A DNA stretch of 64,000 bases from Cyanidioschyzon merolae (lineage: Eukaryota). The translations under genes and the position numbers were made by a program. Each line of letters opens with the position of its first letter. The stretch's first letter is position 1. Positions 1-60,337 of this stretch are shown here, one piece after another. A model generated the notes under the pieces. It saw only the letters and a program-made list of their open reading frames with translations. It did no database searches and had not been told where the DNA came from. The stretch lies in the NCBI GenBank assembly GCA_000091205.1, contig AP006492.2. The stretch is one strand, 5' to 3'.

Positions 1-18
1 CCCCCCATTCCCCCATTC
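1..18. repeat. Two degenerate units of CCCCCCATT (complement AATGGGGGG); telomere-type repeat remnant at the window edge
   Basis: Sequence begins ccccccatt cccccatt, followed by a more degenerate ccccatt. AATGGGGGG is, to my recollection, the telomere repeat of Cyanidioschyzon merolae. Only about 2 units are visible. Confidence 0.3.
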
Positions 19-169
19 GACGCAATGCCCCATTACTGCGGTGTTCTCAGAGCAAAAGCATCTGTCAGAGCGATGTCTACCAATCCAGGTTCGTTCGGGT
101 ATTTTTCCGGCGGTACGATCTGAGCAAATACGCATCTGTCTTATCTACATCCAGCACACCAGTGCCCTT

Positions 170-3100
170 ATGGATCTCCTTCCAGCGCTTTGCTTTTGTT
201 TGTTTCGACAGAGCCTGTTTTACTGACCAGACGCCGAGATTGCCGGATTGATACTTGTTTCGGAAAATCCTTCGTCACGCTGGACAATTTCGGTGATTTT
301 TGTCGCATTTACCTAATCTCGGCTGTACTGATTGTATCTGACTTTCTATCGTGCGCCGTTTACCTACCTTGAGCACCCGTTGTAGCCTCTCTATCGCCGC
401 TGTGGGTGCTCTCCGGAAGCAGGGCTGCTCTGACATACCACTGGGCGCGTTGGAAGGGGCTTGGTTCATGCTACATGGGATCAGGGAGATTTATTTTCTT
501 TGGAGCCTCCAAGCGGATCTTGCAGACGATTTGCATGCGGTAGCGTAAAACGGCGTACTATCTGTTCACCGCGACGGTGTTAGCGCTCAGACGCAGCATG
601 CCTGCTCCTAGTCCCGAAATTAATTGCGTTTTGGATGAGTTGCCCAAGTGTCTCATATCACTCTCCACTGAAAGTCACACGGAGGGCAGGCCGGTAGTCT
701 CGCGGCACGCAGACCTTCCGATTAAATGTAACACTTTGACCATACGCGAAATCATCTTCTTTACGTTTACACTAGGTTGCAATAGTACTTGCTATCCTGT
801 TTGTGCATATTGGTTAATTTTTTTGCATTTTCTCTGTCGTGCGTCCTGGTAACGCATCGCGAAATCTGGCCGTCACGTCACCCAACGTGCGCCTCTCCGA
901 TCAAGAAAAACGCGGTAATGACCTCTTCTGGAGCGACTGCTCTATCGGGGCCACTTGTATTTGCGATCGAATCGTAGCAAAGTATAGTTTTGGCTTCAGT
1001 GGCGTTCCAATCTTAAAGTAACTCTATTCACCAGATTCTCGCCGTTCAAAGCAGAAGCGTCCAATGAGATGTTCTCCCAAAAAATCTGACACTTATGTAG
1101 TATGATGTAGTGGGTTTGGGGTGGCCGGTGCTGCCGGGTGTCAGAATGAAATGAGACATATTGCCTAGCGAAGAGGGTCAGGAAAAGAAGAAGAAGCAAC
1201 ATGGGGGGCCTTACATCGAAGGCCGAAATTGTGACTTCTGTACGACAAGATGGTGGTGGAATCTTATCTTCTCCAACATATCAATGATCCGTACGACTGA
1301 TTGTTGCGAGACGCTATCAGAAACCGTGGCGGATCGTAGGCCGGGTATGTTTGGAGCTTTTCTTTAGGACGTTGGCATTTGGACAGCGACCTGCATCGGG
1401 ACGTAACGCTTATTGCGAAAATGATGTTTCCGGAAAAATTTTTCCAAAAGACTTTCATCAACTACCTGATTGTTTTTAATGGGAAAACATCGGGGATAAG
1501 TGAGCGAGTGCATGCCTTTCTCAAAAATTACGCCAAATTCCTCGTCTTCCGTGCTGAACACAGGGGTGACGCAGACATTTACGAATACAGGGCAAAGAGG
1601 TGCCTTATGAATGTGAGGAACCATAAAATGGCAAACCTCGATTGTTTCATGATACGCGTCGTCTTTGTGCTGTACCCGGGCACATTTCGCGAAGTGATGC
1701 TTGCAATCATCGATGGTATGAAGAACGATCGCCAGCATGGACAGGAGATCAGACTCGTCGACAAGAGGACATCACGCAGGATAATGAATGATGCTTCTGT
1801 AATTCGCGCCACTATTCTAAAACATCGTTCGGTCTTGGGTCATGTCAACCCAAGAGAAAACTCTCGGATATGAGAAACGACGGAGAGAGTTGTTACTCCC
1901 TCATCCTGCCCTGCTTCATGTTTTCGGTCCGAGACCTCGACCGCAGAGCCGACATGGGGCTGAGTGAGGAAAAAATGACGAGTGGGAGAAACGACATTGA
2001 AGTCTTCTCCAGATGCGCTTCAATGTCGGTCAGTTATGCGAGTCCAAGTCACATTTTGTGAGTAACCACTCCATAGTACTTCACGACTTCACGATAGAGA
2101 TTTGTCCAGAGCTCGATGTAATCAACAAATAGGTCTCCGGTGAAGATCGGGACGCCTACGAGAAGAATATCTTCGATTTCAAGCGTCCCGAACCGGCCAA
2201 AAAAAGTTTATTCACTGGAACAATCGATCTCGATGTGGCGCACATATGTGTACACCATCAGCGGTTGAAGGCAGCTCGTCCTATCCCGTCTTCGTTACGG
2301 GCGTTGCCGAAGAACGAACACAGGTTGACGGGCTATGGAACGTATAAGCCCCATGAAAACCACTTTGGCGTCGGCCTTAGTCCCTGGTGCACGAATATCA
2401 TAACCATCGCTGTTCCTAAGCGAAGGGAAGATTGCACTGACTGCACCTTACGTCACAAACATATGCTTCTGCTGAGGTTTTCGAGAGAGAGATACAATCG
2501 AGAATCCGGTATAACGAATGCAAGGAAGAAGATGGTTACGTGGAATGTAGGAATGAAGGATCACCTGGAAGCTTTGAGCGTGGTGACGAGCTGACGAGCG
2601 GACATTCAAGCTTTTCTGAAATTCATGGAAGTTCGTGTTGCTCATTCCGTGGCGCTGTAGGGCGAGTATACAAAGCACCGCTGGGCACGTTTGCGTATGA
2701 ATCTGTGCCGTGGTAAGCATCACGCATTCGCGAGCTTTTTCAATCGATTGAACGCCTTGAAATAGGATCAAGTCAGAGGCTCGTTGTTACATATGGTGTA
2801 GGGAGCTGGGCTCCGAAAAAAAGGGACTCCACCAGCTCCAACGGCAGGAATGGGCAAGGAGTGCGCACTGGGTCTCGCTACGGTACCTGTGGGTGGGTTC
2901 CGAACATCGTATACACACCACGAGTTGGGATGTACTCTTCAGAAGATGGAGATTGAAAAGTGCCCGCGGAGTCGTCATGATATAAAAAAGTAAGGGATAG
3001 CTGACGGGAGAGGAAATGGAAAGGAGGGAAGAAGCTCGTGGACTACTTGCATTAGTAAGTACGACTACCATCGGCAAGAAACGTATGGAGTTCGCGAACC

Positions 3101-3375
3101 GAGTCTTTAACGCTGCAATCAATCTACGGAGATGTGCGGGAATAGACAAAAGACTCCCAGCGGTGACACGAGAGTCCATTGTTGGACAACCTCTTAAACT
3201 GGAACTATATGAGAAACAATGGTGTCCGCAGTAGGTGGCCGGTCGAAAAAGGCGGGAAGGCGTCTGCACGTCAGTTGGCGACTTCTTGTCTAGGGCGCGG
3301 TTGCCGCCACTACTGTACACTGTCGGCAGCAACGTTTTTGTTTCGAAAGATGTTTGTTGTCGTCGGCTGCGGTGG
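170..3375 (+). mobile_element. Fanzor/TnpB-like element, copy A (most degenerate of the three long copies)
   Basis: Collinear DNA similarity to copies B and C over the left end, the ~1 kb non-coding leader, the decayed nuclease ORF and the 3' conserved block (ggcgtctgcacgtcagttgg ... ctagggcgcg ... gccgccactactgtacac). Boundaries are approximate (+/-30 bp), judged by loss of inter-copy similarity. Confidence 0.6.
1199..3330 (+). pseudogene. Fanzor/TnpB-like RuvC nuclease pseudogene (copy A); multiple frameshifts, an internal deletion and an in-frame TAG
   Basis: ATG at 1199 in Kozak-like context (aagaagaagcaacATGG), conserved with copy C. Fragments in three frames match copies B and C: RFNVGQLCESKSHF, TNIITIAVPKR (RuvC-I region), FRTSYTHHELGCTLQ, RMEFANRVFNAAINLRRCAG (RuvC-III). 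In-frame TAG at 2658-2660 where copy B has TGG. Confidence 0.55.
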
Positions 3376-4508
3376 TCTTACGAGACGTTTCGGTCTCAGA
3401 AGCTCTAGCCGACGCTTCCAAGACACTGCAATACCGTTCTGCTTTTGAAGCATAACCACAATAGCTGCGTACGGAACGTCTCGGTGCAAGTTTGCGGAAG
3501 GCAGGGCTTCCGAAGGAGCGCTGCATCAGCGCCTGTGCTGCATAGAGCGAAACTTTGTACCAGAATTTCTGGGACGCGAGAGGGACGTCAGAGAAGCTGG
3601 AGGCACATTCCTGTTCACTAGAAGCGCTGACGCGACTCGGACGTTTCGGCACGATTTCGCCTCTACCGCACTGAAGCGCTTGTGCAGCCGCTCTCAAGGC
3701 AGAAGCTGTGCCATCATACCTACCTCAGGGTATTCGGTTCGTTCCACTTGCATCGTTAGGTCACTGTTCGTACGTCGCTTTAAGGGTTTTATTCGTCGCC
3801 CATGCGTGCTGATGCACACTTCCGGCTCGTGTTTTCCAGATCCATACGCATAGAGCAAAGTCTGTCACGGTCATACTCGGAAACTAAGCCTTCGGCGCCG
3901 CGCCCAGGTTCGTGGAGCGTTGCGATGCCGTCCAGCCAACATCAGTGAACGTTAAATCATGGCATACTTTTATCCTGCGGTTTAGGATGGTTGACCTGAA
4001 CCAGGGAATCTCGGGTCAGGCGCGATACATATCGGCATCCGGGTAAGCGTACGTTATGCCGTACCAGACCCGCAACTTTCGCCAGCTTTCATCCACGCAT
4101 CGCTTTGGAGAATTTTGAGTCAGTTGATTTGATCCTTGTTCGCTGTTGCGGATGCGAACTCCAGCACATCCGGTATCCATGACACGACTAGCAGGTTTCA
4201 ATGATGATAGTAGGCGAACGCTACTCTGCAGCTGCAATTCTGGTGCCACCTTGTCCTTCAGCAATGCTGTCCATTTGGAACAAGCTCGCCGAGATGGTTA
4301 CGGACGCTCCCCTCCACACCTTTTGTACGGTGCCAAGACCTACCAGTTTGGCATAGGTATCCAGCATATCTCAGTCCTCCTTGTCCATCCGCTTATTTTG
4401 AGTACAGACCGAGCACGCTTGTGCAGAGCCCGCACTTCGACGAGGCATTTGATTAACGTCCCTGTAAACGATGCGCATCCAACGCGTTACCATGCGCAGG
4501 CAACATGC

Positions 4509-5585
4509 TCAAGATGCTTTCTTCGGCGTGCTCTGGAGTGCCTCTATACTGGATTGGAGGTCTTCTTTCTCGTCACTTTCCATGAACGGCAGTATTTGTA
4601 GTACTTCAACGACACCATTCCGACCTAGCACACATGGCAACGACAAGAATACATCCGCCGACTCGAGGCCTCGCAACGAGCCCGCATGCGTCGTTATTGG
4701 CAGCACTTTGCGCCGATCATGCACAATCGTTGTAACGATGCTTCCAACAGCGCTGCCAATGGCCCAGTTGGTGTAGCCTTTCAGCTTAATGACCTCGTAA
4801 GCCGCGGCTACAACTTGCTGATGGACACCTTTCACCAGATCATAGAATGCTGTGGACGCGCTCGCAGCGTCGGTCATGCGCTCGAAGCATGTTCGCAACG
4901 GTACGCCACCAACCGTAATACCACTCCGGTACACGAACGAGGAGTCTCCGTGCTCGCCCAGTACCATGGCCTGGACGGAAGCGGTATCGATGCCCAGCCG
5001 CTGCGCCAGAAGTGTGCGGAAACGCGAAGAGTCCAAATATGTCCCTGAGCCAATCACACGTTCGCGGGGCAAGCCACTCATCTGCCACGCTAGATGTGTC
5101 AGTAGATCAACGGGGTTACTCACAACCAACAGGATTGTGTTCTGCGAATACTGCACCAGGGGCGGAATAATGCCTTTGAACAATGCGGCATTGCGATCCA
5201 TGAGCTCAAGACGACTTTCTCCGGGCCGCTGACGCACACCTGCCGTTATAATACATACTGCCGAATGTGCTGTATCCTCGTAGGACTCGGCAGCCCGGAT
5301 GCGGGTGCTGTAGAACGCACCTCCATGCTGCAAGTCCATAACTTGACCCTTGAGTTTGTCCTTGAGAACGTCCACCAGTACCAGCTCACTACAAATATCT
5401 CGGGTCAAAATATTATAGGCGCAAGCAACGCCAACGTCACCAGCTCCAACCACGGTGATGCGGACGGGGTACGAACGTGCAAGCGCCGCACCCGGCGTGT
5501 CGATCGCAGGCGAGACCTCCCCAAAGAGACTTCCCTGAAGCTCAGCCGCCGCCTCGTCGATCCCTGACGTCGTTCCAAAGAGCAC
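4509..5585 (-). CDS. L-lactate dehydrogenase (LDH/MDH superfamily, LDH-type)
   Basis: 358 aa single ORF with Rossmann motif VVGAGDVG. The segment TAGVRQRPGESRL aligns to LDH Q102...R109. IGSGTYLDSSRFR and VLGEHGDSS are LDH signatures (catalytic His in EHGDS). Stop codon is TGA. Confidence 0.85.
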   Translation of the reverse strand: MLFGTTSGIDEAAAELQGSLFGEVSPAIDTPGAALARSYPVRITVVGAGDVGVACAYNILTRDICSELVLVDVLKDKLKGQVMDLQHGGAFYSTRIRAAESYEDTAHSAVCIITAGVRQRPGESRLELMDRNAALFKGIIPPLVQYSQNTILLVVSNPVDLLTHLAWQMSGLPRERVIGSGTYLDSSRFRTLLAQRLGIDTASVQAMVLGEHGDSSFVYRSGITVGGVPLRTCFERMTDAASASTAFYDLVKGVHQQVVAAAYEVIKLKGYTNWAIGSAVGSIVTTIVHDRRKVLPITTHAGSLRGLESADVFLSLPCVLGRNGVVEVLQILPFMESDEKEDLQSSIEALQSTPKKAS

Positions 5586-7774
5586 AGTTCCACGATTTGC
5601 TTCCTTGCCAGACAGATCCTCGAAAAAGTCCGACTACAGGTTTCAGATCGCCCGAGCTGCGGTGCAGGGTTGTTTCCAGCACTGGTGCCGAGATCGCTAC
5701 AAACCCGTGATCGTTTTGTTCTCCAGCACTATAGGCCTCGCCAAAACTAGGTACAGTGCTCTTTGATAACACAGCTGTCGGATCCACGAAGGTATTGCTT
5801 TAAGTCAGAGGGAACGCTCGAGACTGAGCGCCCCGAATAAATCATGCTATCCGTTGAGGACACAAAGATGCACTTGAGGGCTTTCGCGATCGCCCAGAAG
5901 CGCCTTCCGGAGATTCGATCCAGAGCGATGCGCGTCTCGATGACGAGTCCGCCTCGGGGCGTTTTTTTCTTTTTGATGAAAAAACGTTTGCATTGACAAT
6001 GCATCCCAGAATTTGGAACGCACGATGGCTTCCGGGGATATCTCGATCATAGTGCACCTGTCCTCAAGTCCCATTATCCATACTACCTCTCTGATATATT
6101 GGTCGTTTCGTATGTTCTATCGAGCGCCGAGCCTGTTGTGAGCACCCGCTGTAGCGCTTATACCGCTGAAGCAGGTGCTGCACAGAGACAGAACGGCTTT
6201 GCCATACCACTAAGGGCGTCCGCTCGAGGAATGATTCACCTGAAACGGAATCAGGGCTATTTGTCATTCTGGGAACATGCAAAATGCGCAGACAGACCTA
6301 CTACCTGCGACAGCGCGAAGTGCTGTACTAGGATTCCACTGCGACCAGTGCGAGGCCCAACGCAGCGTCCTGTGCATATTCTCAGGATAAAATGCGTTGT
6401 GAACGAGCTGCGCAGGTCTTGCAGCAGCAGCAGCAGCAGCGGCAGCGGCCACTTTAGAGGCATACCGAGCTCTAGCCCGGTAGACTCGACCGGCTCGCGG
6501 GACCTTCCGCCTCGAACATAAGCTTCCGATAATACGGCGATCTATTTCCCCTTAAACGCTTATCGTAGAGCGGGAAAAAATTTTATATCGTTTCTTGTAA
6601 ATCGTAGGTCACTGTCCTTTTTCCTGTATGGCGCGCTCGATACGTGCATCTCCAAGTATGGCACTTACGAGACACGACGCATCTGTCGCCTTTGAAGAGA
6701 AACGCGACCGTGACGACACGTTTTCTTGATGTTCTAACGGGCAAGCTGTATTTGCGTGGAAGTCGTAACAAAATATAGTTTCCAGTTCGATTGTGTCTCA
6801 ACCCTCAAGTAAACATATTCAATTGATTTCTCGCAGTATATAATAGAAGGGTTCAAAGAGCGTTCTTTTTCACACAAAAAAATGAAAAGAAAAGCTATGA
6901 AAAAGCAAGTTGACGATCCTGGAGGCCCAGTGTCGCCTGCTGCCAGAAATAAAAACAAAAAACAGAGCCGAGTCCAGAAGAACAGGAAAAGAAGAAGAAG
7001 CAAAAGGGGAGGCCCTAAGTCGAAGGCGGCAAGAAAGACGACTGTTCGACGAGATGATGGTGAAAGCCTGTCTTCTTAAACAAATCAAGCATCCTTACAG
7101 GGAAAATTTGCGAGACGCTATCAAAAAACGATTCGATTCGTACTCCATTGGTATTTTCAAGGCGTTGTCAAGACTGATGCATTTGGCGAGGGAGATGTAC
7201 GAAAACGTGGCGCACTTGGAAACGGTCGAGATTCCGGACGATTTTTTCGGTAAGACATTTATTCGACACCTAATGCTTGGCACAGCGGAAACGCGGAGGG
7301 AAAATGTGCTAGTGCATGGCCTTTACGAAAAACATCCCCTCTACAGCTTCAACAGTACTCTGTACAGGGGTGATTCGAATGTTTACGTATAAGGGGCGAC
7401 GAAGTACATCACGAAACTGTGGTTCACGTGATCGTGAAACTCGAACGTTTCATGATACGCGCCGTGTTTGCGCTGTACCCGGGTATCTCTCGCAAAGGAA
7501 TATGGGAGATTATCAACGGCATCAAGAACGATCGCAAGCATGAAGGTGAAGTCGAATTCGTCGACACGAAGGCGTTTAACGACAGCACGAATGATACTTC
7601 TGTAATCCATTCGGTTATACAAGAGCACCGTGCAATCTTGGGGCCGGCGAATCCAACAGACAAGACATCAGAGTTGAAAAAAGATAAGGAAAGATACTAT
7701 CGTCTTATTCTGCGCTATTTCATGTTTCTCGACCGAGAACTCGAGCGAAATGCGGAGATGAAGCTGAGTGAAGA

Positions 7775-7781
7775 AAAAAAG
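7775..7781 (+). other. Candidate -1 programmed ribosomal frameshift site: slippery heptamer A_AAA_AAG at the junction of upstream and downstream reading frames of the copy-B nuclease gene
   Basis: Frame-0 codons are gaa|aaa|aag (7773-7781). The downstream conserved frame (frame 2) opens after TGA at 7769-7771 and codes EDWERRKAVLMGKRFNVVPM, conserved with copy C (EELGRRKAAIVGKRF). The upstream frame ends at TAA 7809-7811. Copies A and C change frame by -1 at the same place. Confidence 0.35.
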
Positions 7782-8128
7782 AAGATTGGGAGAGACGGAA
7801 GGCTGTCCTAATGGGTAAGCGCTTCAACGTGGTTCCAATGTGCAGCATCAAGTCACATTTCGTGAATATCGATTCGGACGTGTTTTACGGCATCATGAAG
7901 GAGATCAGTCCAGTGTTCACTGTTATCAGGGATGACTTCACCGGTGAAAACCGGGCGACGTACTTGAAGAACATCTTCAATTTCAAACGGCTCAAAGTGA
8001 GAAGCCAAAAGGTATTCACTGCGTTGATCGAGACCGATGGAGTAACCTTGTATGTACACTATCGGCGCTTGAAAGTGGACCGTCCGATTGTGCCTTTCGC
8101 TTCGCCCTCTGCGAAGCATTAAAAAATC

Positions 8129-8428
8129 AAAGAAGCGGATCCTGCGACACAGGAGGTGCAGGATGACGACTTTGTCGCTGACGCGGTGAAGGATGAAAAA
8201 GAGAAAGAGGCGGAACCTGTGATGCAGAAAGTGCAGGATAACGACCGTGTCGTTGGCGCGGTGAAGGATGAAGGTCAGAAGGAGGCGGATCCTGCCGAAC
8301 AGAATGTGCAGGATAACGACTTAATGGTTGACGCGACGAGGCATCAAGGAAAGAAAGAGGCGGATCCTGCCATACAGGAAGTGCAGGATAAAGACATTGT
8401 GGTTGGCGCGGATCCTGGGAACACGAAT
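8129..8428 (+). repeat. In-frame 75-bp tandem repeat, 4 units, inside the copy-B nuclease ORF just upstream of RuvC-I
   Basis: Units encode KEADPATQEVQDDDFVADAVKDEKE / KEAEPVMQKVQDNDRVVGAVKDEGQ / KEADPAEQNVQDNDLMVDATRHQGK / KEADPAIQEVQDKDIVVGADPGNTN. Copy C has a single unit (YEKEADPAIQKLQDSDFVVGLNPWNTN). Confidence 0.8.
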
Positions 8429-10585
8429 ATCATCACCATCGCAGCACCGAAGCGTGCGGAAGATGGCATGGACGGTAATTTACGCCAGAAAGACATGCGT
8501 CTGCTGAGGTTCTCGAGAGCGAGATACCATCGAGAATCCGTTGTAGTGAATGCAAGGATGATAATCGTTACGTGGAATGCAGGAATAAAGCATCACCTGG
8601 AAGCTTTGAGCGAGGCGACGAGCCGCGGAGCGGTCTATGAAGCTTTTCGGAAATTCATGGAATTTCGTGTTGCCCATTGGGATGCGCTGTGGGAGGAGTA
8701 TAAAAAGCCCCGGTGGGCTCGTCTGCGAATGAATCTATACGGTGTGAAGCAGCGGGCGTTTGCGAATTTTTTCAATCAGTTGAGCGCCTTTGAGGGGGAT
8801 GACCGTCAGAGGCTCGTAGTAGCGTATGGAGCAGGGCGCTGGAAGAACAGAAAAGGAACTACGCCAGCTCCAGCGACGAAGCTGTACAAGGAGTGCGCCC
8901 GGCGTCTCGTTACGATACCTGTATATGAGTTCCGGACGTCCTATACATACCAGGAACTGGGCTGCACGCTTCAGAGGGTAGAGATGGAAAAGTGCCAGAA
9001 GAGCGCTGAGGAAATTGCAAAAGTACGGACCGCTGGCGGAGGAGCAACTGTAAAGGAAGGCGAAAGTTCAAGGGTTACTCGTATTGGTGAGTACAGCTCC
9101 CAACGGCACGAAATGTATGGAGTTCGTGAACCGAGATTTTAATGCCGCTATCAATATACGGAGATGTGCGGTGCTGGAGAAAAGACCTCCAGACTGGACA
9201 CAAGAGGATTTTATTGGACAACCTCTCAAAGTCGAACTATATGAGAAAAAATGGAAGCAGACGTTGGTGGCCGGTCCAAAAAAACGGGGAGGCGTCTGCA
9301 CGTCAGTTGGAGACCCCTTGCCTAGGGCGCGTTCGCCACTACTGTACACGGCCGGGGGCAACGTTTGTCTTTTGAGAGGCGTTCGGTGCGGGCGCGTCAC
9401 GTCGCTTATTCAGAACGTATTTGCGAAGAGTACCTAGAGTATATGTGGTAATAGTTGATGCTTTTCGTGAAGATATTGCTGCCATGGCTGTAACAGGACT
9501 GATGTGACAGAAAATGTGGAAAATGGGCAACTCGAGTTCTTCTGTATTCGATACATCATCCGCTGCCTTGTCGTTTATCTATCTTCCGAGGGTCCTGTGT
9601 CCATTTATTAGCAACGGATCCGTTTACCAATTTGTTTGCAATGATATAGAACAAGATCAATTGTTTAGAATCGATACTGGCCGCTTCTAGAATGCCTCCA
9701 GCTGTGCTCAAGGTGCTGTGGTAATGCTTACATAGCGTACAGCTCGTCTCAGGATGTGACTGCCTGGCATGATGTGCCTCTGGACCGAGTAACGGTAACT
9801 GCGCATCTACGTCTTCACGGCTTACCACCACTTCGTTCTCGTTTTTTTCTAGTGTACAAGACATAAACATAATCCGGAAATCAGCACAACACTTCAGACG
9901 GTTTTATGGACGTAGCCTACGAGCAACGGTAGGCAACAGTGGTGAATATATCGAGACGATGCCTCGACCGCCAGAACAAGCTATAAGCACTTTCAATGTT
10001 AGAGCTATAAGTGCGCTGTGAGGCTGGCGGCCCTGCTTCCATTCGTGCCAAGCGGAGCCGGAGCCCGTAGGCAGGCGTCACGAATATTAGCTTTTCCTCA
10101 AGAGGAATCGGATTTTGGTGAAATTTGCGGTTGTACGGATCGAGTCAAATTTGCTCCAGAACCTCTCCTCAGGACTAGAATGTGCTCAAGTACAACGAAA
10201 CTCAAAAAACAGTTCCAGACGCTCTACTGCAGACATACTCGCTACATGCAACTCGGAAACCGTATTCCGACTACAAAGAGAAGAAAGGGTACCAAGATAC
10301 CGCCATTACCACCAAGGCTATCATCGGGGGCAAGCTCATAGGCATAGGTAATCATTCCTTTACGTTCCAAAAGCAAATTCTGGTCCATTCTTTCTGTTCA
10401 TCAGATCTCTGAATGTCAGCCCCCGAAGAGGACCTCAGATGACACTTCGCGCACAAATATCCACATTAACGCATTCGTTCATTCGTACTCTCGGGTCTTG
10501 TGAACATGAGTGGAATATTGTCGCAACAGAGGATCAGCATAGACGTGATCTAGACTGTGGGCAAATTAACAGTTGAAACGTTCGC

Positions 10586-13500
10586 TCACGCAGTCGGTGG
10601 AGCTGAAGATGTCGCTGATTCCGAGGCGCTCGCAGACGTCGACACAGAAGCTGAAACTGAAGCACTCGCTGATGCACTCGTTGATGCACTCGCAGACACC
10701 GTCGCAGAAGCTGTCGCAGAGACTGTTGCAGACACCGTCGCAGAGGGTGCCGCTGTCACAGCCACGGGACTCGGAGTCGGTGTTGAACTAATCACCACAC
10801 ACTGGTTGTTGATGCACTCCTCGTCAGCGCGGCAGCAACGCACCTTGCTCACAAGGTTATCCGAAGGGATCAGGTACGTCCCGCACTGCTTCGTAGGGTC
10901 CTTGCACACACAGAATGACGGCAGCAGCACCTGTTGTTGCTGCTGTTGCTGCAGTTGCTGCTGCTGCTGCTGGTTGTTGTTGTTGCTGAACGGGTTGTAC
11001 GTGCAGTTCTGCGTCTCGGCGTTGCAGCACTCGGGGCCGCAAGCAATATAGCTCGAGTTCGATACGTTGCTAGTGGTGCCGCTCAGCGAGTTCGACACAT
11101 ACCCGTAGGTCTGGCACACGTACTCGGTCATCGGCTGGAAGCACTCGTTGCTGAGCCCCAGGCAGCAACCAGCCTCCAGACACTGCTGTGGCGAGTAGCT
11201 CGTGCGCTGCGTCCCGTGCTGCTCTCCGTACAGGAGCGTGTTCAGCAGACGCACAAACTGGTTGTTGTTGATGTTATTGTTCAGCTGCTGGTTCTGATTC
11301 ACCGCGTTCGTGCACGGCTGGCGCTCAAACTCGCCCACCGCGCACGTCTTCTCGGGCTGGAAGCAGTACGGGTTCGACTCAAAGTCGCTCTGCTGCTTGC
11401 CGTTCTGCACCCACTGGTTCTGCGCCTGCGAGTCGTAGCAGCAGCCCTGGGCATAGCACGTAAACTGGTTGATACCCGCGTTGCCGCACGGCTGGCGCTG
11501 CGCTCCCGGTGACGGGCAGACGGGTACTGGTGCCTGCACCTCCTGCAGCGCTACAGAGGCCTGCGGTGCATGGTTGATGTCGTAGTAGCACCAGGGTGCC
11601 AGGATGCCGTTTGCCGTTGGCTGCCAGCAGCATCCCGGTATCGCAGTGCACTCGTCGGGATAGATGTAGCTCCAGCCGCAGGGGACGCGCTGCGTCACTG
11701 GAACAGCGCTGCACGCCGCTGAGACGCTCTTCAGGGTGCACGCGTTCGTCTGGGAGTTAAAGCAGCACCCGACTTGCTCGCAAGCGTCCTGGTTTGTGTA
11801 CTGGCCCGGAGAACCGCAGATTTCACTCGTGCAAACTGGTGTTGGCGTTGCACTCGGTGTCGGGGTTATAATAGCAAGTGTCGCACCAGAGGGTAGAATT
11901 GTAGAAAGCTGGTCGGTGAAAGTTTGAAGCACACTTTGCAGTTCACTGGCGAGGGATGTGTCTCCTGAGATCTTAATCACATAGGTCACAACACTGCCGC
12001 CCGAAGTGCGCACCAATGCTCGTTCCAGACGAAGATTGCTCTTGTCTAATGTGGTGGCGAGGCGCCTTGATGTGCCCGAACCGAAGACCGTGTCGCAGTT
12101 ATCAGTCACGCTGACATTCACTACCTGGCCCGTGAAGCGAGCCTCGAGATCGTTCTGCAAATCCGTCGCCACGGCCAAACAAAGAGAAAGATTCTGAACG
12201 GATATCGCAATCGAGGTGGAAATCGTCGTCGGCACGATTGTTGGTGACGTTGTTGCAGTTGGAGTCATCGTCGGCGTCATCGTCACTGTCGTTGGAGACT
12301 CTGTTACAGTAATCGTTGGCGATGATGTAATTGTCGGAGTCATCGTCGCAGTCGGTGTCGGTGTAGGTGTAGGTGTAGGTGTCGGTGTCGGTGTCAGTGT
12401 AGGTGTCGGTGTCAGTGTCGCAGTCGGTGTCGCAGTCGGTGTCGCAGTCGGTGTCGGTGTCGGTGTCGGTGTCGCAGTCGGTGTCGGTGTCGGTGTAGGT
12501 GTCAGCGTGGGTGTCGGGGTCGCAGTAGCAGTTGGCGTAATCGTTGGTGTCAGAGTTGGCGTTGATGTTGGCGTAGGCGTAGGGGTAGGCGTAAAGAACG
12601 TTTCACTCAGTGCGAAAACATCATTGAGATAGCCAGGAATGCTAGTGTTTGAGTATCCAAATCCGCCAAACATGACCGGATCAGTCCCACTTGTGTTCCA
12701 GAAAACTGACCCAGTTCGACCGCCAGGCGAAACACTAGGGCTGGTCTTATTCAAAAATCCATATACGGAAAGTGCAAATCCATTTTGGCTGCCATTGATC
12801 CACGCCCACTGACCCAGTGTCATATCAAATACCCACAAATCGTTCAAATCACCGGGGCTCTCACGAGTATTCCCATATCCTTCACCACCAAAAAGTAGCA
12901 GATTACCCAAAGAATCCACGAAACTCACGCCTGAGTCTCTTGCACCAGGGTAACTGGTTGGGGCGAAAGCACCGAGACTTCCATAAGATCCTGGATTGTT
13001 AATAGTGGTATTCCCTGCGATAAAAATCCATACAGATTGACTTATGTTGTAGACCCAGAGATCATTCAACTTCCCTTGTCCTGGTGCTGTGCTGTCGCCG
13101 TAGCCAAGACCACCGAACATCCAGAGATTTCCTTCAAAATCTGTCCAGGTATTCGCGACGATGCGCGCACCTGGTGCACTCGAATTGTTCGCCACGCCAG
13201 GTGCGCTATAGTTGCCAGGCTGGTTAGCAAGTTGTGATCCGCCTCTGTATGCCCATTGCAGTGTAGTGGGATTAAATGACCACAGATCGGAGACAGAATC
13301 CCCAAGATTATTTTCACCACCAAACAACCAAAAAGTACCGTCAGCACCCAACCAGAATGATGCACTGCCTCGGGACCCAGGATTGTAGGAAGGACCAAAG
13401 ACGCCCTCCGCTCCATATATCGTGCCGGCATTTACCGTATCATTCCCGCTGACCCAAGTCCAGACTCTGCTTTCTGTATCGTACATCCACATGTCGTTCA

Positions 13501-14011
13501 TGGGGCCAAAGTTTGCATTCCGATCATAACCGAGGCCACCAAACAACCAGAAATGCTGCTCGTCCATCTGCCAGTACGCGCTTCGATAACGACTGCCAGG
13601 TGTATTGGCTGGGCTGCCTGTGCCGACTGTGCCGTACACTCCTGGTTGGTCGGCTTCTGAGGAACCTCCTATCCACGTCCATTCATGTGAGGTCAAGTTG
13701 AAGGTCCATAGATCATTAAAGTAGCTCAGATATGGGTTTCCACCCCCAACCCCGCCAAACAAGTATACCAAGCTCGAACTTCCGACCCAGGCTGCAGAAT
13801 CGTAACGGCCACCTGGAACACTATCTGCTGAAGTCTGGTTCAGCGTTCCATAATTACCAGGATTATCTCTACCCGTCTCTCCACCTATCCAGGTCCAGCT
13901 AACCGTACTCACAGGCGACAACGCAGCTACAAGCGACACGGAAAACGTGGCCGCCAACAATAGACAAACAGCAACAACCAGGCCACGTACCAGAGAGCGA
14001 GCTCGAAACAT
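10586..14011 (-). CDS. Secreted multidomain protein: signal peptide, Kelch/galactose-oxidase-like beta-propeller repeats, Thr-Pro-rich mucin-like linker, 3-4 trefoil (P-type)-like Cys domains, polyQ, and a Ser/Ala/Val-rich tail
   Basis: 1141 aa single ORF. The N-terminus [30 protein letters not shown] is signal-peptide-like. Recurrent ...YLFGG / WLFGG ... NDLW(T/S/V)F blades indicate Kelch repeats. (TPTPTP...)n lies at about 12240-12600. Trefoil-like modules show R-x-x-C-G-x9-C-x4-C-C-[YFW] ... P(W/Y)C(F/Y): [23 protein letters not shown]...APWCYY and [22 protein letters not shown]...NPYCFQP. Confidence 0.7.
12240..12600. repeat. Low-complexity (ACN-CCN)n coding repeat (Thr-Pro linker); mirrored on the plus strand as the spurious (GV)n ORF 12216-12632
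   Basis: gtcggtgtcggtgtaggtgt... periodicity; encodes [11 protein letters not shown]... on the minus strand. Confidence 0.8.
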
Positions 14012-17047: not shown

Positions 17048-18061
17048 CTATTCCCGAGTGATGTACTTCTGAAGAATCGGGAAGAATATGTTGCGGAACC
17101 TGCCACGCTTTTCACGTAAGAGGTTGCTATCGGCGACACATCCCGGGAAAATCGCCACAGGGGTCACCCCGTCGCGGCCGTATCGATCACTGAGCGCCTT
17201 CATTGTCAATACGTTGGCGGCTTTGGCGTCTTTGTAGGCTTTTGTGGGCTCAAACGGACTATTCTCTTCCATGCCAGTCGTCCGCGGTCCGAGTCTTGCG
17301 TCGACACCAGACAAATCACCAAGACGAGCCTGCGGGGGGATCTTTCCCGGCAGCGAATTCGGCGAGTGGGTCTGAGTCGTCAAGAACACAATGCGCCCGC
17401 GCAATATTTTCAGCTTCGGCAACAGCTCCCGACATAGAAGCAAATGGCTCAGATGGCAAACCTGTATGGCCTTCTCGATGCCGTCCACCATGAAACGCGG
17501 TTTCTTGTCCCGCGGATGCCATATTGCGGCATTGCAGATAAGGGCATCCAGGTGATCGACGCGCGCCACACTCGATAGCTCTCTCATAGACTTCAACACA
17601 GAGGCGAAATCAGCCAGATCACAATGCAGCACTGTATAGGCGTCCTTTGGGAGGTTCACGCTGTTTGCTGTGCGTTCCGCCTGACCAATGTCACGACATG
17701 CCATGACGATGTGCCAATTGCCCTTGTTGATCAGAGCGCGAGCTGCATACAGACCGACCCCAGAGGACGCGCCAGTGATCACGGCGATCTGCGACTGTTT
17801 CGGGCCCATACGAAGATGCAGCATACGATGCCGGCGCGTTACAGGCGATCGCTGCACCATCAAGGGTAGCGGATGCTGGAAATGGTGACGATGTACAGCT
17901 GTGAAGCACCTGTCACGTGCGGTACGCAGCGGAAACGGTGCTCGAGTTGCAGCGGGTGCGCCAACTATGTGTTTTTCCTGGCACAGCGGAAAACAAACCA
18001 ATACGTCTTGCAGTTTTTTGGGATAGATTTTCTTTGGTGGTAAAGCTGCCAACTTCATCAC
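17048..18061 (-). CDS. Light-dependent protochlorophyllide oxidoreductase (LPOR)-like short-chain dehydrogenase with N-terminal transit-peptide-like extension
   Basis: 337 aa: IAVITGASSGVGL (NADPH Rossmann motif), NAAIW, YKDAK (SDR catalytic Y-x-x-x-K). The C-terminus GVTPVAIFPGCVADSNLLREKRGRFRNIFFPILQKYITRE closely matches the LPOR C-terminus (...YPGCIATTGLFREHIPLFR.LFPPFQKYITKG). Related RDH/WWOX-type SDRs are not excluded. Confidence 0.7.
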   Translation of the reverse strand: MMKLAALPPKKIYPKKLQDVLVCFPLCQEKHIVGAPAATRAPFPLRTARDRCFTAVHRHHFQHPLPLMVQRSPVTRRHRMLHLRMGPKQSQIAVITGASSGVGLYAARALINKGNWHIVMACRDIGQAERTANSVNLPKDAYTVLHCDLADFASVLKSMRELSSVARVDHLDALICNAAIWHPRDKKPRFMVDGIEKAIQVCHLSHLLLCRELLPKLKILRGRIVFLTTQTHSPNSLPGKIPPQARLGDLSGVDARLGPRTTGMEENSPFEPTKAYKDAKAANVLTMKALSDRYGRDGVTPVAIFPGCVADSNLLREKRGRFRNIFFPILQKYITRE

Positions 18062-18363
18062 CGACTAAAGTCGTTCGCGTACGCATACATTTCCAGGGAG
18101 AAATCTCTTTTTCGTTGCTGCACGAGTGATCGCCCATCAATTGCGCAGAGTCCGACTTGTAACTCCCGTAGACTGTCTAGCGTTGAGCGCATCGAGCACA
18201 AGCGCTCAATGTCTTCCACAGAGACTAGGCGAAACTCGCGGTTTGCCGTGCAATAATCTCGTCAGTACTGGTAACTCAGTGCTCCGCATTGTTGCGCTCA
18301 GATAGCGCAAAGATCGTAGTGGCACGATGCTGCACCCCGGGGTACGGCGCCGCGGACACGCAA

Positions 18364-18530
18364 GGGAATTCCCTCCGGCGGGATGATTTCGGTGCATACG
18401 CATCTGGTAAGGCGATGGTTCGAACAGCAGAGCCATTAGGGAATTCCCTCCGGCGGGATGATATCGGTGCATACGCATCTGGTAAGGCGATGGTTCGAAC
18501 ACCAGAGCCATTAGGGAATTCCTTCCGGCG
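18364..18530. repeat. 75-bp tandem repeat (about 2.3 units) abutting the 5' end of element copy C; the unit shares its first ~17 nt and a ggttcga(a)cag motif with the element left terminus
   Basis: Units start at 18364 and 18439 (gggaattccctccggcgggatgat(t/a)tcggtgcatacgcatctggtaaggcgatggttcgaaca(g/c)cagagccatta). A third partial unit gggaattccttccggcg runs directly into the element (ttatgcttttttggttcgacagaacgtttctactgacc). Confidence 0.8.
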
Positions 18531-21500
18531 TTATGCTTTTTTGGTTCGACAGAACGTTTCTACTGACCATGCATCCCATGTTTCCGGGTCGATATTGGCT
18601 TTCGGGAAAGCGTCCATCATGTTGGACTACTTCTGCACGTTACATCGCTTTTGCTTACTCTCTGCTGTACTGGTCGTCTCATTTTTTCTATTGTGCGCCG
18701 GTTGCCTGCCATGAGCACCCGCCGTAGCATCTCTATCGCTGGTGCGGATGCGCTACGAAAACAGAACAGCTTTGGCATACCACTGAGCGCGTCGGAAGAG
18801 GCATTGTACAAGCGATACGGAATCAGGGCTATGTATATTTTTGGGAGCCTCCAATCTGGACAGGCTGACCTTCTGCCTGTGGTAGCGGGAAGCGGTATTG
18901 TAGGATTCCTCCGCAACCAAGGTGATGCCCAGACCCAGTATACGCGCTCCTAGTGCCAAAATCAAATGCGTTTCGGACGAGGTGCTCAGGTGCGTCACAT
19001 CACCCACCACCGCAGAGTCACACGGCGTACAAGCCGGTAGAGTCTCGCGGCTTGCAGACCTCGCGCCTAAAAGGCAACTGTTTGACCAAACGCAAAAACA
19101 TCCTGCTTTGAACGTTTATTGTAGATGGCAATAGAACTTGCTATTCCGTTTGTGGATATTGGTTAGTTTTCGGCATTTTCTATTTCGTGCGCCCTGGCAA
19201 CGCATCTCGGAATCTGGCCGTCACTTCACACGACGTTCTTCTCGCCGATGATGCGAAACGCGGTAATGACCTCTTTTGGAGCTATCGCTCTATCGGGGCC
19301 AGTTGTATTTGCGCTCGAATCGTAGAGAAGGATAGTTTCGGCTTCAATTGTGTTTCATACTTCATGTAAGGATATTTAAGTGATTTCAGCCGTTCAAAGC
19401 AGAAGCGTCCAATGTGTTCTCCCCCAAAAAACAAAAGGTAGACTCATGTAATTGGAAGTAGAGGGTTTTGGATGGCCGGTGTTGCCCGAAGTTAGAAGAA
19501 AACGAGGAACAGTGCCTCGCAAAGAGAAACAGGACAGGAAGAAGAAGCAAATGGGGGAGGCCTTTTGTCGATGGCTGCAAGAGTGACGTCTCTACGATGA
19601 GATGGTGGTGGAATCCTGTCTTCTTCGACGTATAAAGGATCCGTACGAGGGAGAGTTGCGAGACGCTATGAGAAACCGTGTCGACTTGTACTCCATGAGT
19701 ATTTCCAAAGCGTCGTCACGACTGATGCATTTGGCGAGGGAGATGTACGAAAACGTGGCGCACTTGGGAACGGCCGAGATTCCGGCGATTTTTTCGATAA
19801 GACCTTTATTCGACACCTGATGCTTGCCACAGCGGAAACGCGGAGGGAAAATGTGCTAGTCCATGGCCTTAACGAAAAACATCCCTTTTACAGGTTCGAG
19901 GCTACTCGATACAATGCTGACCGGGATATTTACATGTACGGAGCGATGAAGTATATCACGAACCTGAAGAATCTTTTGGCAGTGAACCTCGAACGTTTCA
20001 TGATACGCACCGTGTCTGCACACTGCCCGGGCATCTCTCGCAAAGGAGTATGGGCGATTATCAATGGCATCACGAACGATCGTAAGCGTGAAGATGAGGT
20101 CGAATTTGTCAGGGAGAAGGCGTCATGCAGGAGTACGAATGGACTTCTGTAATCCGTGCGGCTATACAAGAGCACCGCGCAGTCTTGGGGTTGGCGAATC
20201 CAACAGACAAGATGTCAGACTTGAAAAAGATAAGGAAAGATACTATCGCCTCATCCTGCACTATTTCGTGTTTTTAGACCGTGAACTCGAACGCAAGGCA
20301 GCGATGAAGCTGAGTGGGGAAAAAATGAAGAGTTGGGGAGACGGAAGGCGGCCATAGTAGGGAAGCGCTTCAACGTGGTTCCAATGCGCAACATCAAGTC
20401 ACAATTTGTCACCATCGACTCCAGAACCCTTCATGGCATCATGAGAGAGATCAGTCCCGAGTTCAATGTTAACAGGGCGGAGGTGACCCGTGAAACCCGC
20501 GAGACGCACTGGAAGAATCCCTTCGATTTCAAACGTCACAAAGTCAGCAAACAAAAGAAATTCACCGGGATGATCGAAACCGATGGATTAGCCATGTGTG
20601 TACACTGTCGGCGGTTGAAGGCAAATCGTCAAGTTCCGTCTTCGATATTGCCCGTTACGAAGCATGAATATGAGAAGGAGGCGGATCCTGCGATACAGAA
20701 ACTGCAGGATAGCGACTTTGTCGTCGGCCTTAACCCCTGGAACACAAACATTATAACCATCGCTGTACTAAAGCGTCCGGAAGATTGCACCGACGGCAAC
20801 TTACGTCAGAAATATATGCGTCTTCTGAGGTTCTCGAGAGCAATATACAATGGAGAATCCGGTATGATCAATGCAAGGAAGAAAATCGAGACTTGGACTT
20901 CAGGAATGAAGGATCAAATGGAAGCTTTGAGCGAGGTGACGAGCCGCGGAGCGGACTTTGAAGCTTTTCTGAAATTCATGGAAGTTCGCATTGCGCATTG
21001 GGATGCGCTGTAGGAGGAGTATACAAAGCCTCGGTGGGCTCGTTTGCGTGTGAACTTGTACTGCGGGAAGCAGCGTGCATTCGCGAACTTTTTGAATGAA
21101 TTGAGTGCCTTGAAGAAGGATGAAAGTCAGAGGCTCGTAGTATCGTATGGGGCAGGACGCTGGGCGTCGAAGAAAGGGACTACACGTGCTCCAACCACAA
21201 GACCGTACAGGGAGTGTGCACGACGCTTCGTTACGATACCGATAGATGAGCTCCGAACATCGTATACTCACCATGAACTGGGACGTACACCTCAAAAAGT
21301 CGAGATGGAAAAGTGTCAGCAGAGCCCTGAGGATATAAAAAAGTACGGACCGCTGACGGAGGAGCAAATGGAAAGGAAGACGAAAGTTCGTGGACTCCTT
21401 GCATTAGTAAGTACAACCAATAATGGCAAGGAACGTATGGGGTTTGTGAACCGAGACTTTAACGCCGCCATCAATATCAGGAGATGCCCTGTGATGGAAA

Positions 21501-21718
21501 AAAAAAGACCCCCAGAGTCGACACGAGAGAGAATTCTGTTGGACAACCACCCAAAGTGGAACTATATGAGAAAAAGCTGGAATAAGTCGTACGTGGCCGG
21601 TCCAAAAAAACTGGGAGGCGTCTGCACCTCAGTTCCAAACGTTCTGACTAGGGCGCGTTTGCCGCCACTGCTGTACACCGCTGGCGACGTTCGACTTTAG
21701 AACAGCGTTGATGGTGCT
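18515..21718 (+). mobile_element. Fanzor/TnpB-like element, copy C
   Basis: Collinear with A and B across leader, ORF and 3' block. The right end (...gcgacgttcgactttagaacagcgttgatggtgctgcg) is shared with fragment E up to ...gttgatg(g/a)tgct and ends within about 4-8 bp of the WD40 gene ATG (21722). Confidence 0.65.
19551..21700 (+). pseudogene. Fanzor/TnpB-like RuvC nuclease pseudogene (copy C)
   Basis: ATG at 19551 (caaATGGGGGAGG). In-frame TGA at codon 12. Frameshifts near 19815 and 20100, plus the family-wide -1 junction at about 20320. In-frame TAG at 21011-21013 (copy B has TGG). The C-terminal part is continuous: IDELRTSYTHHELG...GKERMGFVNRDFNAAINIRRCPVM (RuvC-III). Confidence 0.6.
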
Positions 21719-21721
21719 GCG

Positions 21722-23482
21722 ATGAACCGCGTCCTCCTTGATCGTCTCTTTCCTTTTGTTCGAGCGCAGGTTCCGGAACAAGTCGAGTTCTCGCTGAGCG
21801 AGCACGGTACGGGTCGTTGTTTCGCTTTTACACCGCTCTACGGGAACGTTCTTGCAGTCGGACTCGCTGACGGCACCATTGCGTTATATGACCTCGTAAC
21901 GAGAGCGCTTGCCAAAAAGCTCTACGGACACACGAGCGACGTGTTCTCGCTAAGCTTTGTGCCACGCTCTACCTGGCTGTTGAGTACGTCTCTGGACGGC
22001 AGCCTGCGCCTTTGGGATGTATCTCAGCTGCGCTGCATTGTCTGCGTGCGCTTCGAGGCACAACTTGCGAGAGCTTCCGCACATCCACGCTTTCGGCAGA
22101 ATCGCCTGTGTTGCGTCTCACAGACTGGCCAACCGGTTCTTCTGGTACAGCTGCCTGTCGAACCAGGAGAGTACCATGTGACTCAGTGCCCGTCTGTTTG
22201 GGTGCTGTGGTCGGGCCCCGCATCCACGCTGACGATGAGTGCGCAGGAGCGGACTCCGACTGAGACTTTACAAGTACCGGAGTGTGCACACGTCCATGCT
22301 TCAGACACCGAGGACGGCAACTCGGTCTGTACGCGGAACTCGGATGCGCTCCCACCGGTACCTGAACGTGCACCACTGCTTCGAGAGCTCGGTACGCACG
22401 GCGCTGTGGAGTTGCCGCCGACGCTGACGGGAAGCATCACGATGCCAGTAGCGTACTTGGCTGCTGAATTCGACCCCACTGGTGCCTACATCATCACACA
22501 TGCTGCAGAGCAACCTGGTCTCTTGAAGGTTTTCAAGATCGAGCGCGCTACAGAGGCAGGCTCGGGTCCGAGGCTCACCGTTCACTGTTCCGCATCGTTC
22601 GCACTGCCGCCCCGTGCATTCGTGAAACAAATACAATTTGCTGAACGAGGGGACCTGTTCCTGGTTGTGGCGCATGATCGAATTGTTCGGGTTTTTGAGT
22701 GGAAACCGTTCGAACCGAACAAAGTAAGACTCTGGCGAGAGCTGAAAGATCGCGTTTCCTCAGTACAATGGCGATGGGCTGCATTCGCGAGCCACGACGA
22801 ATTTCTAGTTGCTGGAACAGCGGCAAGCGCTGACCATCGCCTCTATATTTGGGATCTGAAGGCGAATCAATTAGTGAAACAATTGGATGGGCGCCCCAAA
22901 GAGTCCCTCAGTATGCTAGCGTACCATGCGAATCTTCATGCACTGCTAGTCCTGGTGTATCAGAGTGGCTCCATTCTTGTCTATCACAAGACCGTAGCGG
23001 AGAACTGGAGTGCATACGCACCATCATTTCGAGAAGTATCTGAAAATGTCGAGTATGTGGAGGCAGAGGATGAATTCGACTTTGACCCCGACGGGAGCAG
23101 CGTATATGATCGCCGTCGTCGCAAACATTTCGCTCCAGCTGATGAGGATGCTACCGTGGTCGACATAACCGGGAGGCTCCCCGATTCTGATCCTGGATAC
23201 CAGCGATTCGCGGAAGCCGGCTGGAACGCGTCGTCATCGTCGTCCATGTCGTCGTCCAATGAGGAGCTGCTCTGTCTACCGGTAGACATCCCGCTGGATC
23301 TACCTCCGTTAGCATCAGAGGCTTCCTGGATCGGCGAGTATCGCGCGCTACGCAGACACGAATCGGAACAGCAAAGCTGCAGCGCAACGACGCTTCGACA
23401 AGACGATGCGTCGGCAGGTACCTCAAGTCAGGCAGTCATGCGCACTGTACGTGATGATCCTGCCGGCCAGCTGGCCAAATAG
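21722..23482 (+). CDS. WD40-repeat protein
   Basis: 586 aa. It contains GLADGTIALYDL...GHTSDVFSLSFVP...STSLDGSLRLWDV and a later ...DHRLYIWDL, which are typical WD repeats. No further family assignment. The start codon abuts the element C terminus. Confidence 0.7.
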   Translation: MNRVLLDRLFPFVRAQVPEQVEFSLSEHGTGRCFAFTPLYGNVLAVGLADGTIALYDLVTRALAKKLYGHTSDVFSLSFVPRSTWLLSTSLDGSLRLWDVSQLRCIVCVRFEAQLARASAHPRFRQNRLCCVSQTGQPVLLVQLPVEPGEYHVTQCPSVWVLWSGPASTLTMSAQERTPTETLQVPECAHVHASDTEDGNSVCTRNSDALPPVPERAPLLRELGTHGAVELPPTLTGSITMPVAYLAAEFDPTGAYIITHAAEQPGLLKVFKIERATEAGSGPRLTVHCSASFALPPRAFVKQIQFAERGDLFLVVAHDRIVRVFEWKPFEPNKVRLWRELKDRVSSVQWRWAAFASHDEFLVAGTAASADHRLYIWDLKANQLVKQLDGRPKESLSMLAYHANLHALLVLVYQSGSILVYHKTVAENWSAYAPSFREVSENVEYVEAEDEFDFDPDGSSVYDRRRRKHFAPADEDATVVDITGRLPDSDPGYQRFAEAGWNASSSSSMSSSNEELLCLPVDIPLDLPPLASEASWIGEYRALRRHESEQQSCSATTLRQDDASAGTSSQAVMRTVRDDPAGQLAK

Positions 23483-33229: not shown

Positions 33230-33660
33230 TTCATTTCCAAAAAAAAAATAAGGAATGAGCCGCAGTGCGCACTTCAGTAGGCCGAGATGGAGCGCCGGCA
33301 GCCAAGCGCATCGGTAATAGAGAAGCACGCAGAGCTGACAGAGCCCCAAATGGTACTAATGGCACGAGTTCGAGGAATCGGTGTACTGATGAGTTCCATT
33401 AGAGGCAATGCACGCATGGAATTCATAAACCGAGGCGTCAACGCCGCCACCAACATCAGGAGATGTTCAGCGCTCCAGACGAGACCTGCGGAGCATTCGC
33501 GAGCGAACGTTATCGTGATGCTTCTCAGGCTCCAAGTTTGCATGGAGAAACTGTAACCGATAGCAGGGAGCCGGTAAAAAAGGCTGAAAGGCGTCTGGGC
33601 ATACCTATTAATTTCCATTAGATGCTCGTGAAACGTTGTCGCTCCATCGGGCATATTCCA
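33230..33660 (+). mobile_element. Short 3'-end derivative of the Fanzor-like element (fragment D)
   Basis: ORF 33287-33556 encodes ...TEPQMVLMARVRGIGVLMSSIRGNARMEFINRGVNAATNIRRC, a decayed RuvC-III NAAINI region, followed by a diverged ggcgtctg block. It shares a subfamily-specific sequence and the same 5' breakpoint (...cacttcag(t/a)aggccgagatgg) with fragment E. Confidence 0.5.
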
Positions 33661-36076: not shown

Positions 36077-36392
36077 GTTCCAGTCCGTGCGGTAAAATCG
36101 ATGCGGTAAGCAACATATTATGAGACACGAGTGGACAGTAATGGATCGATTGCCTTGCATGCCGTGCGGTAAGATTGATGCGGTAAGTATCCAATTATGG
36201 GACAAGAATGGTCAATAATCGATCGATCATGATGCATGTCGTGCGGTAAGCTTGATGCGGTAAGTATCCTATTATGAGACACTAGTGAACGACCATCCAT
36301 AGATTGCCTTGCATGTCGTGCGGTAGGAACGATGTGGTTAGCATCATATTATGAGACAATCATGATCAATAATCGATCGATCACCTCGCACG
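36077..36392. repeat. Tandem repeat, about 80-bp subunits x4 (alternating two subunit types, effectively ~160 bp x2), in the 5' flank of the FkbM methyltransferase gene
   Basis: Recurrent gtgcggtaag(a/c)ttgatgcggtaag(t/c)a...attatgagaca... with the alternating blocks ggatcgattgccttgcatg and gtcaataatcgatcgatca. It generates the spurious overlapping ORFs 35943-36300. Confidence 0.8.

Positions 36393-60306: not shown

Positions 60307-60337
<31 letters not shown>

Follow-up and report, generated by a model that had tools for sequence, protein, structure and literature searches.

The first 17 bases of the window, by which the whole 64,000-nt stretch of DNA analysed here is meant, are almost certainly the innermost stretch of telomere at the left terminus of Cyanidioschyzon merolae 10D chromosome 10, in the PCR-collapsed form in which that end entered the 2007 reference. 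The analysis itself shows the motif and its orientation, the host and its chromosome, the order of the genes and the sites of the primers. The telomere edge of this chromosome is an already known feature: a 2007 publication gives the telomere repeat and all 40 ends, and the literature also describes the LDH, trefoil and POR paralogs of the subtelomeres. Recognising a chromosome end correctly from 17 bases, with no tools, is useful for calibration and small as a discovery. One lead alone has a measure of novelty: telomere-adjacent copies of a repeated element fall in a clade of their own, which may be new. Two caveats concern users of assembly ASM9120v1. PCR has collapsed the units at the terminus, which may in part stem from a primer, and the primers used to amplify the last few hundred bases are common to paralogous ends. 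The coordinates of the features are collected in Table 1.

Table 1. Features of the 64-kb window, ordered by position.
Feature	Coordinates	Strand	Basis and remarks
Perfect telomere unit CCCCCCATT	1–9	+	C-strand of AATGGGGGG
Innermost, five-C telomere unit CCCCCATT	10–17	+	One C short; sequence reading and TRF
Element copy A	18–3349	+	Self-BLAST, tblastn; 5′ end directly against the telomere
CmT2 primer site	361–381	-	Zero mismatches; directed toward base 1
CmT3 primer site	1157–1178	-	Exact match, within element copy A
L-lactate dehydrogenase (LDH) paralog, BAM80157.1	4509–5585	-	Annotated part 4509–5339 (exact protein identity to BAM80157), 276 aa, from Met83
Element copy B, internal subfamily	6087–9383	+	Self-BLAST, tblastn; 5′-truncated relative to copy C
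Kelch + trefoil (K+TFF) secreted-type gene	10586–14011	-	1141 aa; Pfam Kelch and Trefoil hits
Truncated protochlorophyllide reductase (POR) paralog	17048–18058	-	TIGR01289 LPOR positions 2–250 of 315
Element copy C, internal subfamily	18363–21709	+	Self-BLAST, tblastn; inner edge of the subtelomeric zone
BAM80159 (RBBP5-like WD40), first single-copy housekeeping gene	21722–23482	+	Exact protein identity
BAM80160	24764–27118		Exact protein identity
Element fragment	33275–33517		Self-BLAST, tblastn
BAM80162 (RPN12)	37576–38412		Exact protein identity
BAM80163 (CMJ012C)	39356–40705		Exact protein identity
BAM80164	42498–44342		Exact protein identity
BAM80166	49184–50383		Exact protein identity
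BAM80167	51739–53568		Exact protein identity
BAM80168 (CMJ018C)	53880–57509		Exact protein identity
BAM80169 (CMJ019C)	59337–61457		Exact protein identity
Element fragment, reversed	63398–63835		Self-BLAST, tblastn

Telomere units at base 1

Window 1–41 reads CCCCCCATT, CCCCCATT, cgacgcaatg, ccccatt and actgcgg. The unit AATGGGGGG is therefore present as one perfect copy followed by a five-C variant, 1.9 units in all, and TRF scores 2–18 as 2.1 copies of CCCCCATT. At this left end the C-strand forms the top strand, so that the G-rich strand runs 5′ to 3′ toward the terminus. A search of both strands of the whole 64-kb window finds the perfect 9-mer, as CCCCCCATT or AATGGGGGG, at base 1 only, and the exact 17-mer CCCCCCATTCCCCCATT (1–17) has a single occurrence. 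The motif at 1–17 is thereby confirmed as real. A chance origin is ruled out, the exact 17-mer being found in none of 100 dinucleotide-preserving shuffles. When three mismatches are tolerated, 11 of the 100 shuffles do contain a match, and the weight consequently rests on exactness and position, not on C-richness.

The original prediction had counted two to three telomere units within the first 40 bases. Two of them hold (1–17), while the third, CCCCATT at 28–34, is separated from the second by the 10-nt spacer CGACGCAATG and belongs to the repeated element described below. It lies within the first of two subrepeats of ~75 nt (18–94 and 95–172), which can be aligned both mutually and to the 5′ subrepeats of element copy C (18363–18530), and it is kept as CCCCATTA in the telomere-adjacent metagenome contigs L012 and L026. 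Judged by these alignments, the third ccccatt is a part of the subtelomeric element and not a telomere unit, although an ancient and since fixed derivation from the telomere is conceivable.

Placement on chromosome 10

Exact look-up pairs eleven ORFs of the window with C. merolae 10D proteins that agree at every residue, all of which are on a record of 839,707 bp; Nozaki 2007 (PMC1955436) lists this length for chromosome 10 in its Table 1. The host is thus one that uses AATGGGGGG as its telomere. This motif, which the original prediction had taken for the C. merolae telomere repeat, is published for all 40 C. merolae ends (Nozaki 2007, PMC1955436), and a 2026 comparison table gives it for both C. 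merolae and Cyanidiococcus (PMC13353863). The identical proteins fall within BAM80157–BAM80169, with accession numbers that climb with window coordinate, and the locus tags CMJ012C, CMJ018C and CMJ019C ascend along the + strand. The lowest accession of the series, BAM80157, is the LDH gene 4.5 kb from base 1. The order of accessions and tags, together with the first accession being that of LDH, places the window at the left end of chromosome 10, and base 1 is presumably the first base of the deposited chromosome. The exact ORF at 46622–48493 has no match in the protein collection.

A second line of evidence comes from the primers with which the ends were obtained. CmT2 (AACGGGTGCTCAAGGTAGGTA), listed for end 10L (PMC1955436 Additional file 2), matches exactly and points toward base 1. 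The physical end of the chromosome is therefore reached indirectly, via the first accession 4.5 kb in and the 10L primer site. The left chromosome end that had been predicted is borne out in that accession order, primer site and C-strand orientation agree.

Since just two units are visible, the tract could be thought interstitial, the window then starting at an arbitrary internal coordinate and the motif being the leftover of a former end or fusion. This is very unlikely, for the numbering rises away from base 1 starting with the first chromosome 10 accession, the published 10L primer lies 361 nt in, no further CCCCCCATT occurs in 64 kb, and the ends of the reference hold at most 2.5 units by construction. 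An interstitial tract was rejected on the accession order and the 10L primer site.

Origin of the deposited end

Telomere arrays of C. merolae are 400–700 bp long by terminal restriction fragment and Southern analysis, yet at most 2.5 units were sequenced at any end (Nozaki 2007, PMC1955436). This limit accounts for no array being visible upstream of base 1. In the cell, the end would carry ~400–700 bp of (AATGGGGGG)n, the length being that of the literature, and the top strand of a left end would read (CCCCCCATT)n; in 10D, CCCCCATTCGACGCAATG would be preceded by (CCCCCCATT)n. The ends of 2007 were amplified with a telomere primer (...ATTCCCCCCATT-3′) and an end-specific primer (PMC1955436 Additional file 1). 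Amplification with CmT2 on one side and a primer with the 3′ end ATTCCCCCCATT on the other would collapse the array to the innermost unit or units, and bases 1–9 may be derived from the telomere primer. The unit at 10–17 sits 3′ of the primer match, and therefore this unit and all the sequence beyond it were presumably read from the template.

The same primers raise the question of which end was amplified. CmT2 is also the nested primer for 1R, CmT3 is the 9R primer and the first primer for 1R, and the PCR template for this end was a pool of chromosomes 9–14 (PMC1955436). The terminal sequence thus appears to be common to at least 1R and 9R, in which case the assignment to 10L rests on the authors' choice of template from the pooled chromosomes. 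Alternatively, the terminal ~360 bp could be a true telomere junction that comes from a paralogous end, for instance 9R, with bases 1–9 being the PCR primer. The ATTCCCCCCATT end of the telomere primer, the double use of CmT2, the CmT3 match in the same copy A and the pooled template all fit such an origin, but the authors assigned the sequence to 10L, and an unbroken run leads from the CmT2 site through copy A into the chromosome 10 LDH gene (BAM80157.1). We regard a paralogous origin as unlikely, and the reading of 1–17 as a telomere edge stands even if it were true.

A search of the window for the remaining 25 published end primers, tolerating as many as 4 mismatches, gave hits of c927tF and 878-4 that are of the chance or low-complexity kind. 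Apart from these, only primer 882-2, for 16R, gives matches, which are weak, with 4 mismatches, and lie at homologous sites of copy A (3228–3249, - strand) and copy C (21586–21607, - strand). These matches suggest that 16R may carry an element copy in similar orientation, with its 5′ end toward the telomere.

The ~3.3-kb repeated element

Self-BLAST and tblastn recover the five copies of one element family that had been predicted, three of ~3.3 kb and two fragments. Identity is 73–82% among the internal copies and 64–77% between these and copy A. Copy C begins with 2.2 subrepeats of 75 nt at 96% identity (18363–18530), whose ends read AGCCATT (18432–18438 and 18507–18513). The core of the 5′ subrepeat of the element is GCGG.A.GAT.TC.G.GCA.A.GCATCTG. 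Copy B carries another 75-bp repeat at 8129–8411, of which there are 3.8 copies in frame with the ORF, encoding 25-aa units KEADP..QKVQDND.VV.A.KDE; copy C has one unit of it.

The CCATT-like ends of the subrepeats, agccatt in copy C and ccccatt at 28–34 in copy A, might lead one to take the CCCCCCATT units for the terminus of the element itself. The internal copies B and C, however, have neither CCCCCCATT nor CCCCCATT at their 5′ ends, and in metagenome contigs the perfect units run to the contig end while the junction with the element varies in sequence and length. An element terminus is hardly credible in view of these 5′ ends and variable junctions, and was rejected. The units at 1–17 are instead best read as telomere against which the element abuts.

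Two published descriptions resemble the element. One is a 3.2-kb interspersed repeat with 253 copies and a truncated WSV486-like ORF (Nozaki 2007, PMC1955436), and the other is the Fanzor1 element CMe-1A, ~3 kb long with ~150 copies at ~80% to the consensus (Bao & Jurka 2013, PMC3627910). The copies in the 64-kb window have the ~3-kb size and the many diverged copies of CMe-1A and the WSV486-like repeat. We infer that the element is the WSV486-like repeat of Nozaki 2007 and take it as Fanzor1-type CMe-1A; size and abundance fit both descriptions, and the Fanzor assignment itself rests on Bao & Jurka 2013. By eye, the ORF remnants contain the TnpB-like motifs GLNPWNTN, DEFRTSYT and NRDFNAAINI. 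Pfam gives PF07282 as the sole hit on the element consensus (E=0.013, below cut-off) and no hit on the single element ORFs. Sequence and profile searches of the PDB with the element ORF returned no meaningful match.

Telomere junctions in metagenome contigs

A metagenome scan with (CCCCCCATT)3 returned 24 stretches, the contigs being thus fetched via their telomere arrays. In 14 of the 24, an array of (CCCCCCATT)≥3 lies at most ~50 nt from the contig end, and the polarity of these 14 telomere-ended contigs is uniform: left ends show the C-strand and right ends the G-strand. In eight of the 14 (L011, L012, L013, L019, L020, L022, L025 and L026), a homolog of the element (window 18–3330) follows directly after the array, its 5′ subrepeat end turned toward it, with 68–77% identity to the window over long alignments. 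Beyond the element, the flanking sequence differs among these eight contigs. Degenerate innermost units are found at the junctions of L011, L012, L013 and L026, such as TTCCCTCC in L011 and L012. Past the junction, the conserved element sequence is ...CCCCATTA.TGCG.TG.T.C.AG.GC.A.AGCATCTG... A separate metagenome scan with the exact junction 26-mer of the window (21–46) gave zero matches.

In the ten other stretches (L009, L014–L016, L021, L023 and L028–L031), which have no similarity to the window, (CCCCCCATT)3 is internal. L014 (JRYG01000776.1), for instance, holds 4+2 internal units at 90–152 of the stored stretch.

A possible telomere-associated clade

A neighbour-joining tree was built on a common region of ~810 nt from a small sample, biased by the retrieval of contigs through their telomere arrays. 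Two clades are seen in it. The terminal clade contains window copy A and six copies from hot-spring metagenome contigs (L012, L013, L019, L022, the terminal copy of L025 and L026), with 73–84% identity between distinct lineages and 93–96% for the near-duplicates L013/L019 and L022/L025. The internal clade contains window copies B and C and the internal copy of L025, with 79–82% identity. Across the two clades, identity over the ~810 nt is 60–67%. It is possible, but as yet a tentative reading of these sequences, that the telomere-touching copy represents a separate subfamily of the Fanzor1-type repeat, one associated with telomeres. That CmT2 and CmT3 were usable as end-specific primers fits with interspersed copies that lack A-type sequence.

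Such a subfamily could be a Y′-like element held at the ends by end-to-end recombination. More speculatively, the element may insert into telomere repeats, or a CCATT-bearing 5′ end may seed telomere addition; base pairing between a subrepeat end with CCATT and the template of telomerase is conceivable.

Extent and genes of the subtelomere

The adjacent 60 kb had been described as rich in decayed repeats, as is typical of subtelomeres. The subtelomeric zone is real, but it spans only ~21.7 kb, in which three element copies accompany decaying paralogs of the classes L (LDH), T (Kelch+trefoil) and P (POR). Beginning at 21,722, the window carries common housekeeping genes, namely those for an RBBP5-like protein, cycloartenol synthase, RPN12, NOT2 and aspartate kinase. 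Similarly, the satellites mentioned in the original prediction exist as minisatellites detected by TRF, most of which are contained in genes or in the element. At 12351–12522, a 6-bp array is coding sequence for the PT-rich linker of the K+TFF protein. A minisatellite at 36085–36381, of 77 bp x 3.9 with 75% matches or alternatively of 154 bp x 1.9, sits in the spacer between an FkbM-type gene and the RPN12 gene.

L, T and P are end-associated gene classes according to the legend of Fig. 3 of Nozaki 2007 (PMC1955436). The block next to the telomere accordingly carries paralogs of end genes (LDH, Kelch+trefoil and an LPOR fragment), and it may be homologous to other 10D ends, as is suggested indirectly by the exact 1R/9R primer sites of copy A and by near-identical LDH paralogs.

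The LDH of the window is 99% identical to three C. merolae 10D LDHs (chromosomes 1, 3 and 11). Its codon 5 (5571–5573) is ACG where the paralogs have their ATG start, and it has also the substitution P148Q. BAM80157.1 is without the GAGDVG NAD-binding motif. The full-length LDH, of 354 or 358 aa, was negative by exact look-up in the protein collection, where only the form from Met83 is present. CMJ002C is listed as the chromosome 10 LDH gene (mBio, PMC6606799), and the window LDH is presumably CMJ002C. CmLDH4 was reported to be ~80 residues shorter and probably inactive (PMC11387445), and its shortness is explained by the ATG to ACG substitution of the start codon. Seven short JGI metagenome contigs (L001–L007) are 97–99% identical to window 3382–5862 and have intact LDH genes of 354 aa; three of them (L001–L003) have extra tandem copies of a ~250-bp segment, equivalent to window 5548–5799, directly upstream of LDH.

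The Kelch+trefoil class is known to be subtelomeric in Cyanidiophyceae (PMC13353863), and exact look-up of the 1141-aa ORF in the protein collection was negative. The POR paralog scores 239 bits versus the TIGR01289 cut-off of 331 and is thus sub-threshold. Exact look-up of the POR-like ORF in the protein collection was likewise negative, and because of this absence the POR fragment is probably an unannotated subtelomeric pseudogene. The ORF of an FkbM-family methyltransferase (34810–35946, - strand, 378 aa) is found exactly in JGI/Logan assemblies and has no NCBI 10D accession. For the FkbM and Kelch+trefoil ORFs, the reference entries BAM80161 and BAM80158 are likely to start at a different codon or to deviate in some other respect.

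Proposed structure of the end

In the proposed structure, telomerase would add AATGGGGGG onto the 3′ end of the G-strand, giving a canonical telomere, which would adjoin the 5′ end of the ~3.3-kb element, with the ~21.7-kb subtelomere coming next. The innermost telomere units are not re-synthesised and hence drift. Such drift would explain why the window has a five-C unit and the relatives have degenerate ones. The C. merolae TERT is CMD110C, and the candidate telomerase RNAs are CMM123T and CMP131T with the template CCCCCCAUU (PMC1955436). A search of the whole window with Rfam (gathering thresholds) and ARAGORN detected no telomerase RNA or other known RNA. Subtelomeric transposable elements in C. 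merolae have been reported to be repressed by H3K27me3/PRC2 (bioRxiv 10.1101/2022.10.24.513474).

Comparison with known systems

The window agrees with the C. merolae 10D telomere (Matsuzaki 2004; Nozaki 2007, PMC1955436) in the unit, the end 10L, the orientation and the limit of at most 2.5 units. No difference of substance is seen; the second unit has five Cs and not six, which is what an innermost unit, or the reading of a homopolymer, would be expected to give. The subtelomeric homologous elements of C. merolae (T/P/L/H, Nozaki 2007 Fig. 3) are also telomere-adjacent, and L, T and P of that figure are shared with the window. Compared with them, the window has an L without its start codon and a truncated P, while the 1R/9R primer sites are common. 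The ~21.7 kb of the window are in keeping with the subtelomeric scale of 'up to 20 kb' published in the same paper (Nozaki 2007, PMC1955436).

Among relatives, the telomere unit AATGGGGGG of Cyanidiococcus yangmingshanensis is that of the window, whereas AATGGGGGGG of Cyanidium caldarium is one G longer (PMC13353863, PMC9812998). Cyanidiococcus and Cyanidium have conserved subtelomeres of 20–30 kb with duplicated genes that include the Kelch/trefoil/Hog families (PMC13353863, PMC9812998). The proteins of the window are exact to C. merolae 10D, while the Cyanidiococcus LDH is only 73% identical.

The Y′ elements of yeast are multi-kb subtelomeric repeats that encode a helicase. The ORFs are unrelated, that of the window element being putatively TnpB/Fanzor-like. 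The window differs also in having no tandem Y′-type arrays with telomere tracts between them, and the element family has ~150–250 interspersed internal copies. By analogy, nevertheless, the two may be likened in being multi-kb, in carrying a decayed ORF, in lying against the telomere in a fixed orientation at several ends and in being shared between chromosome ends.
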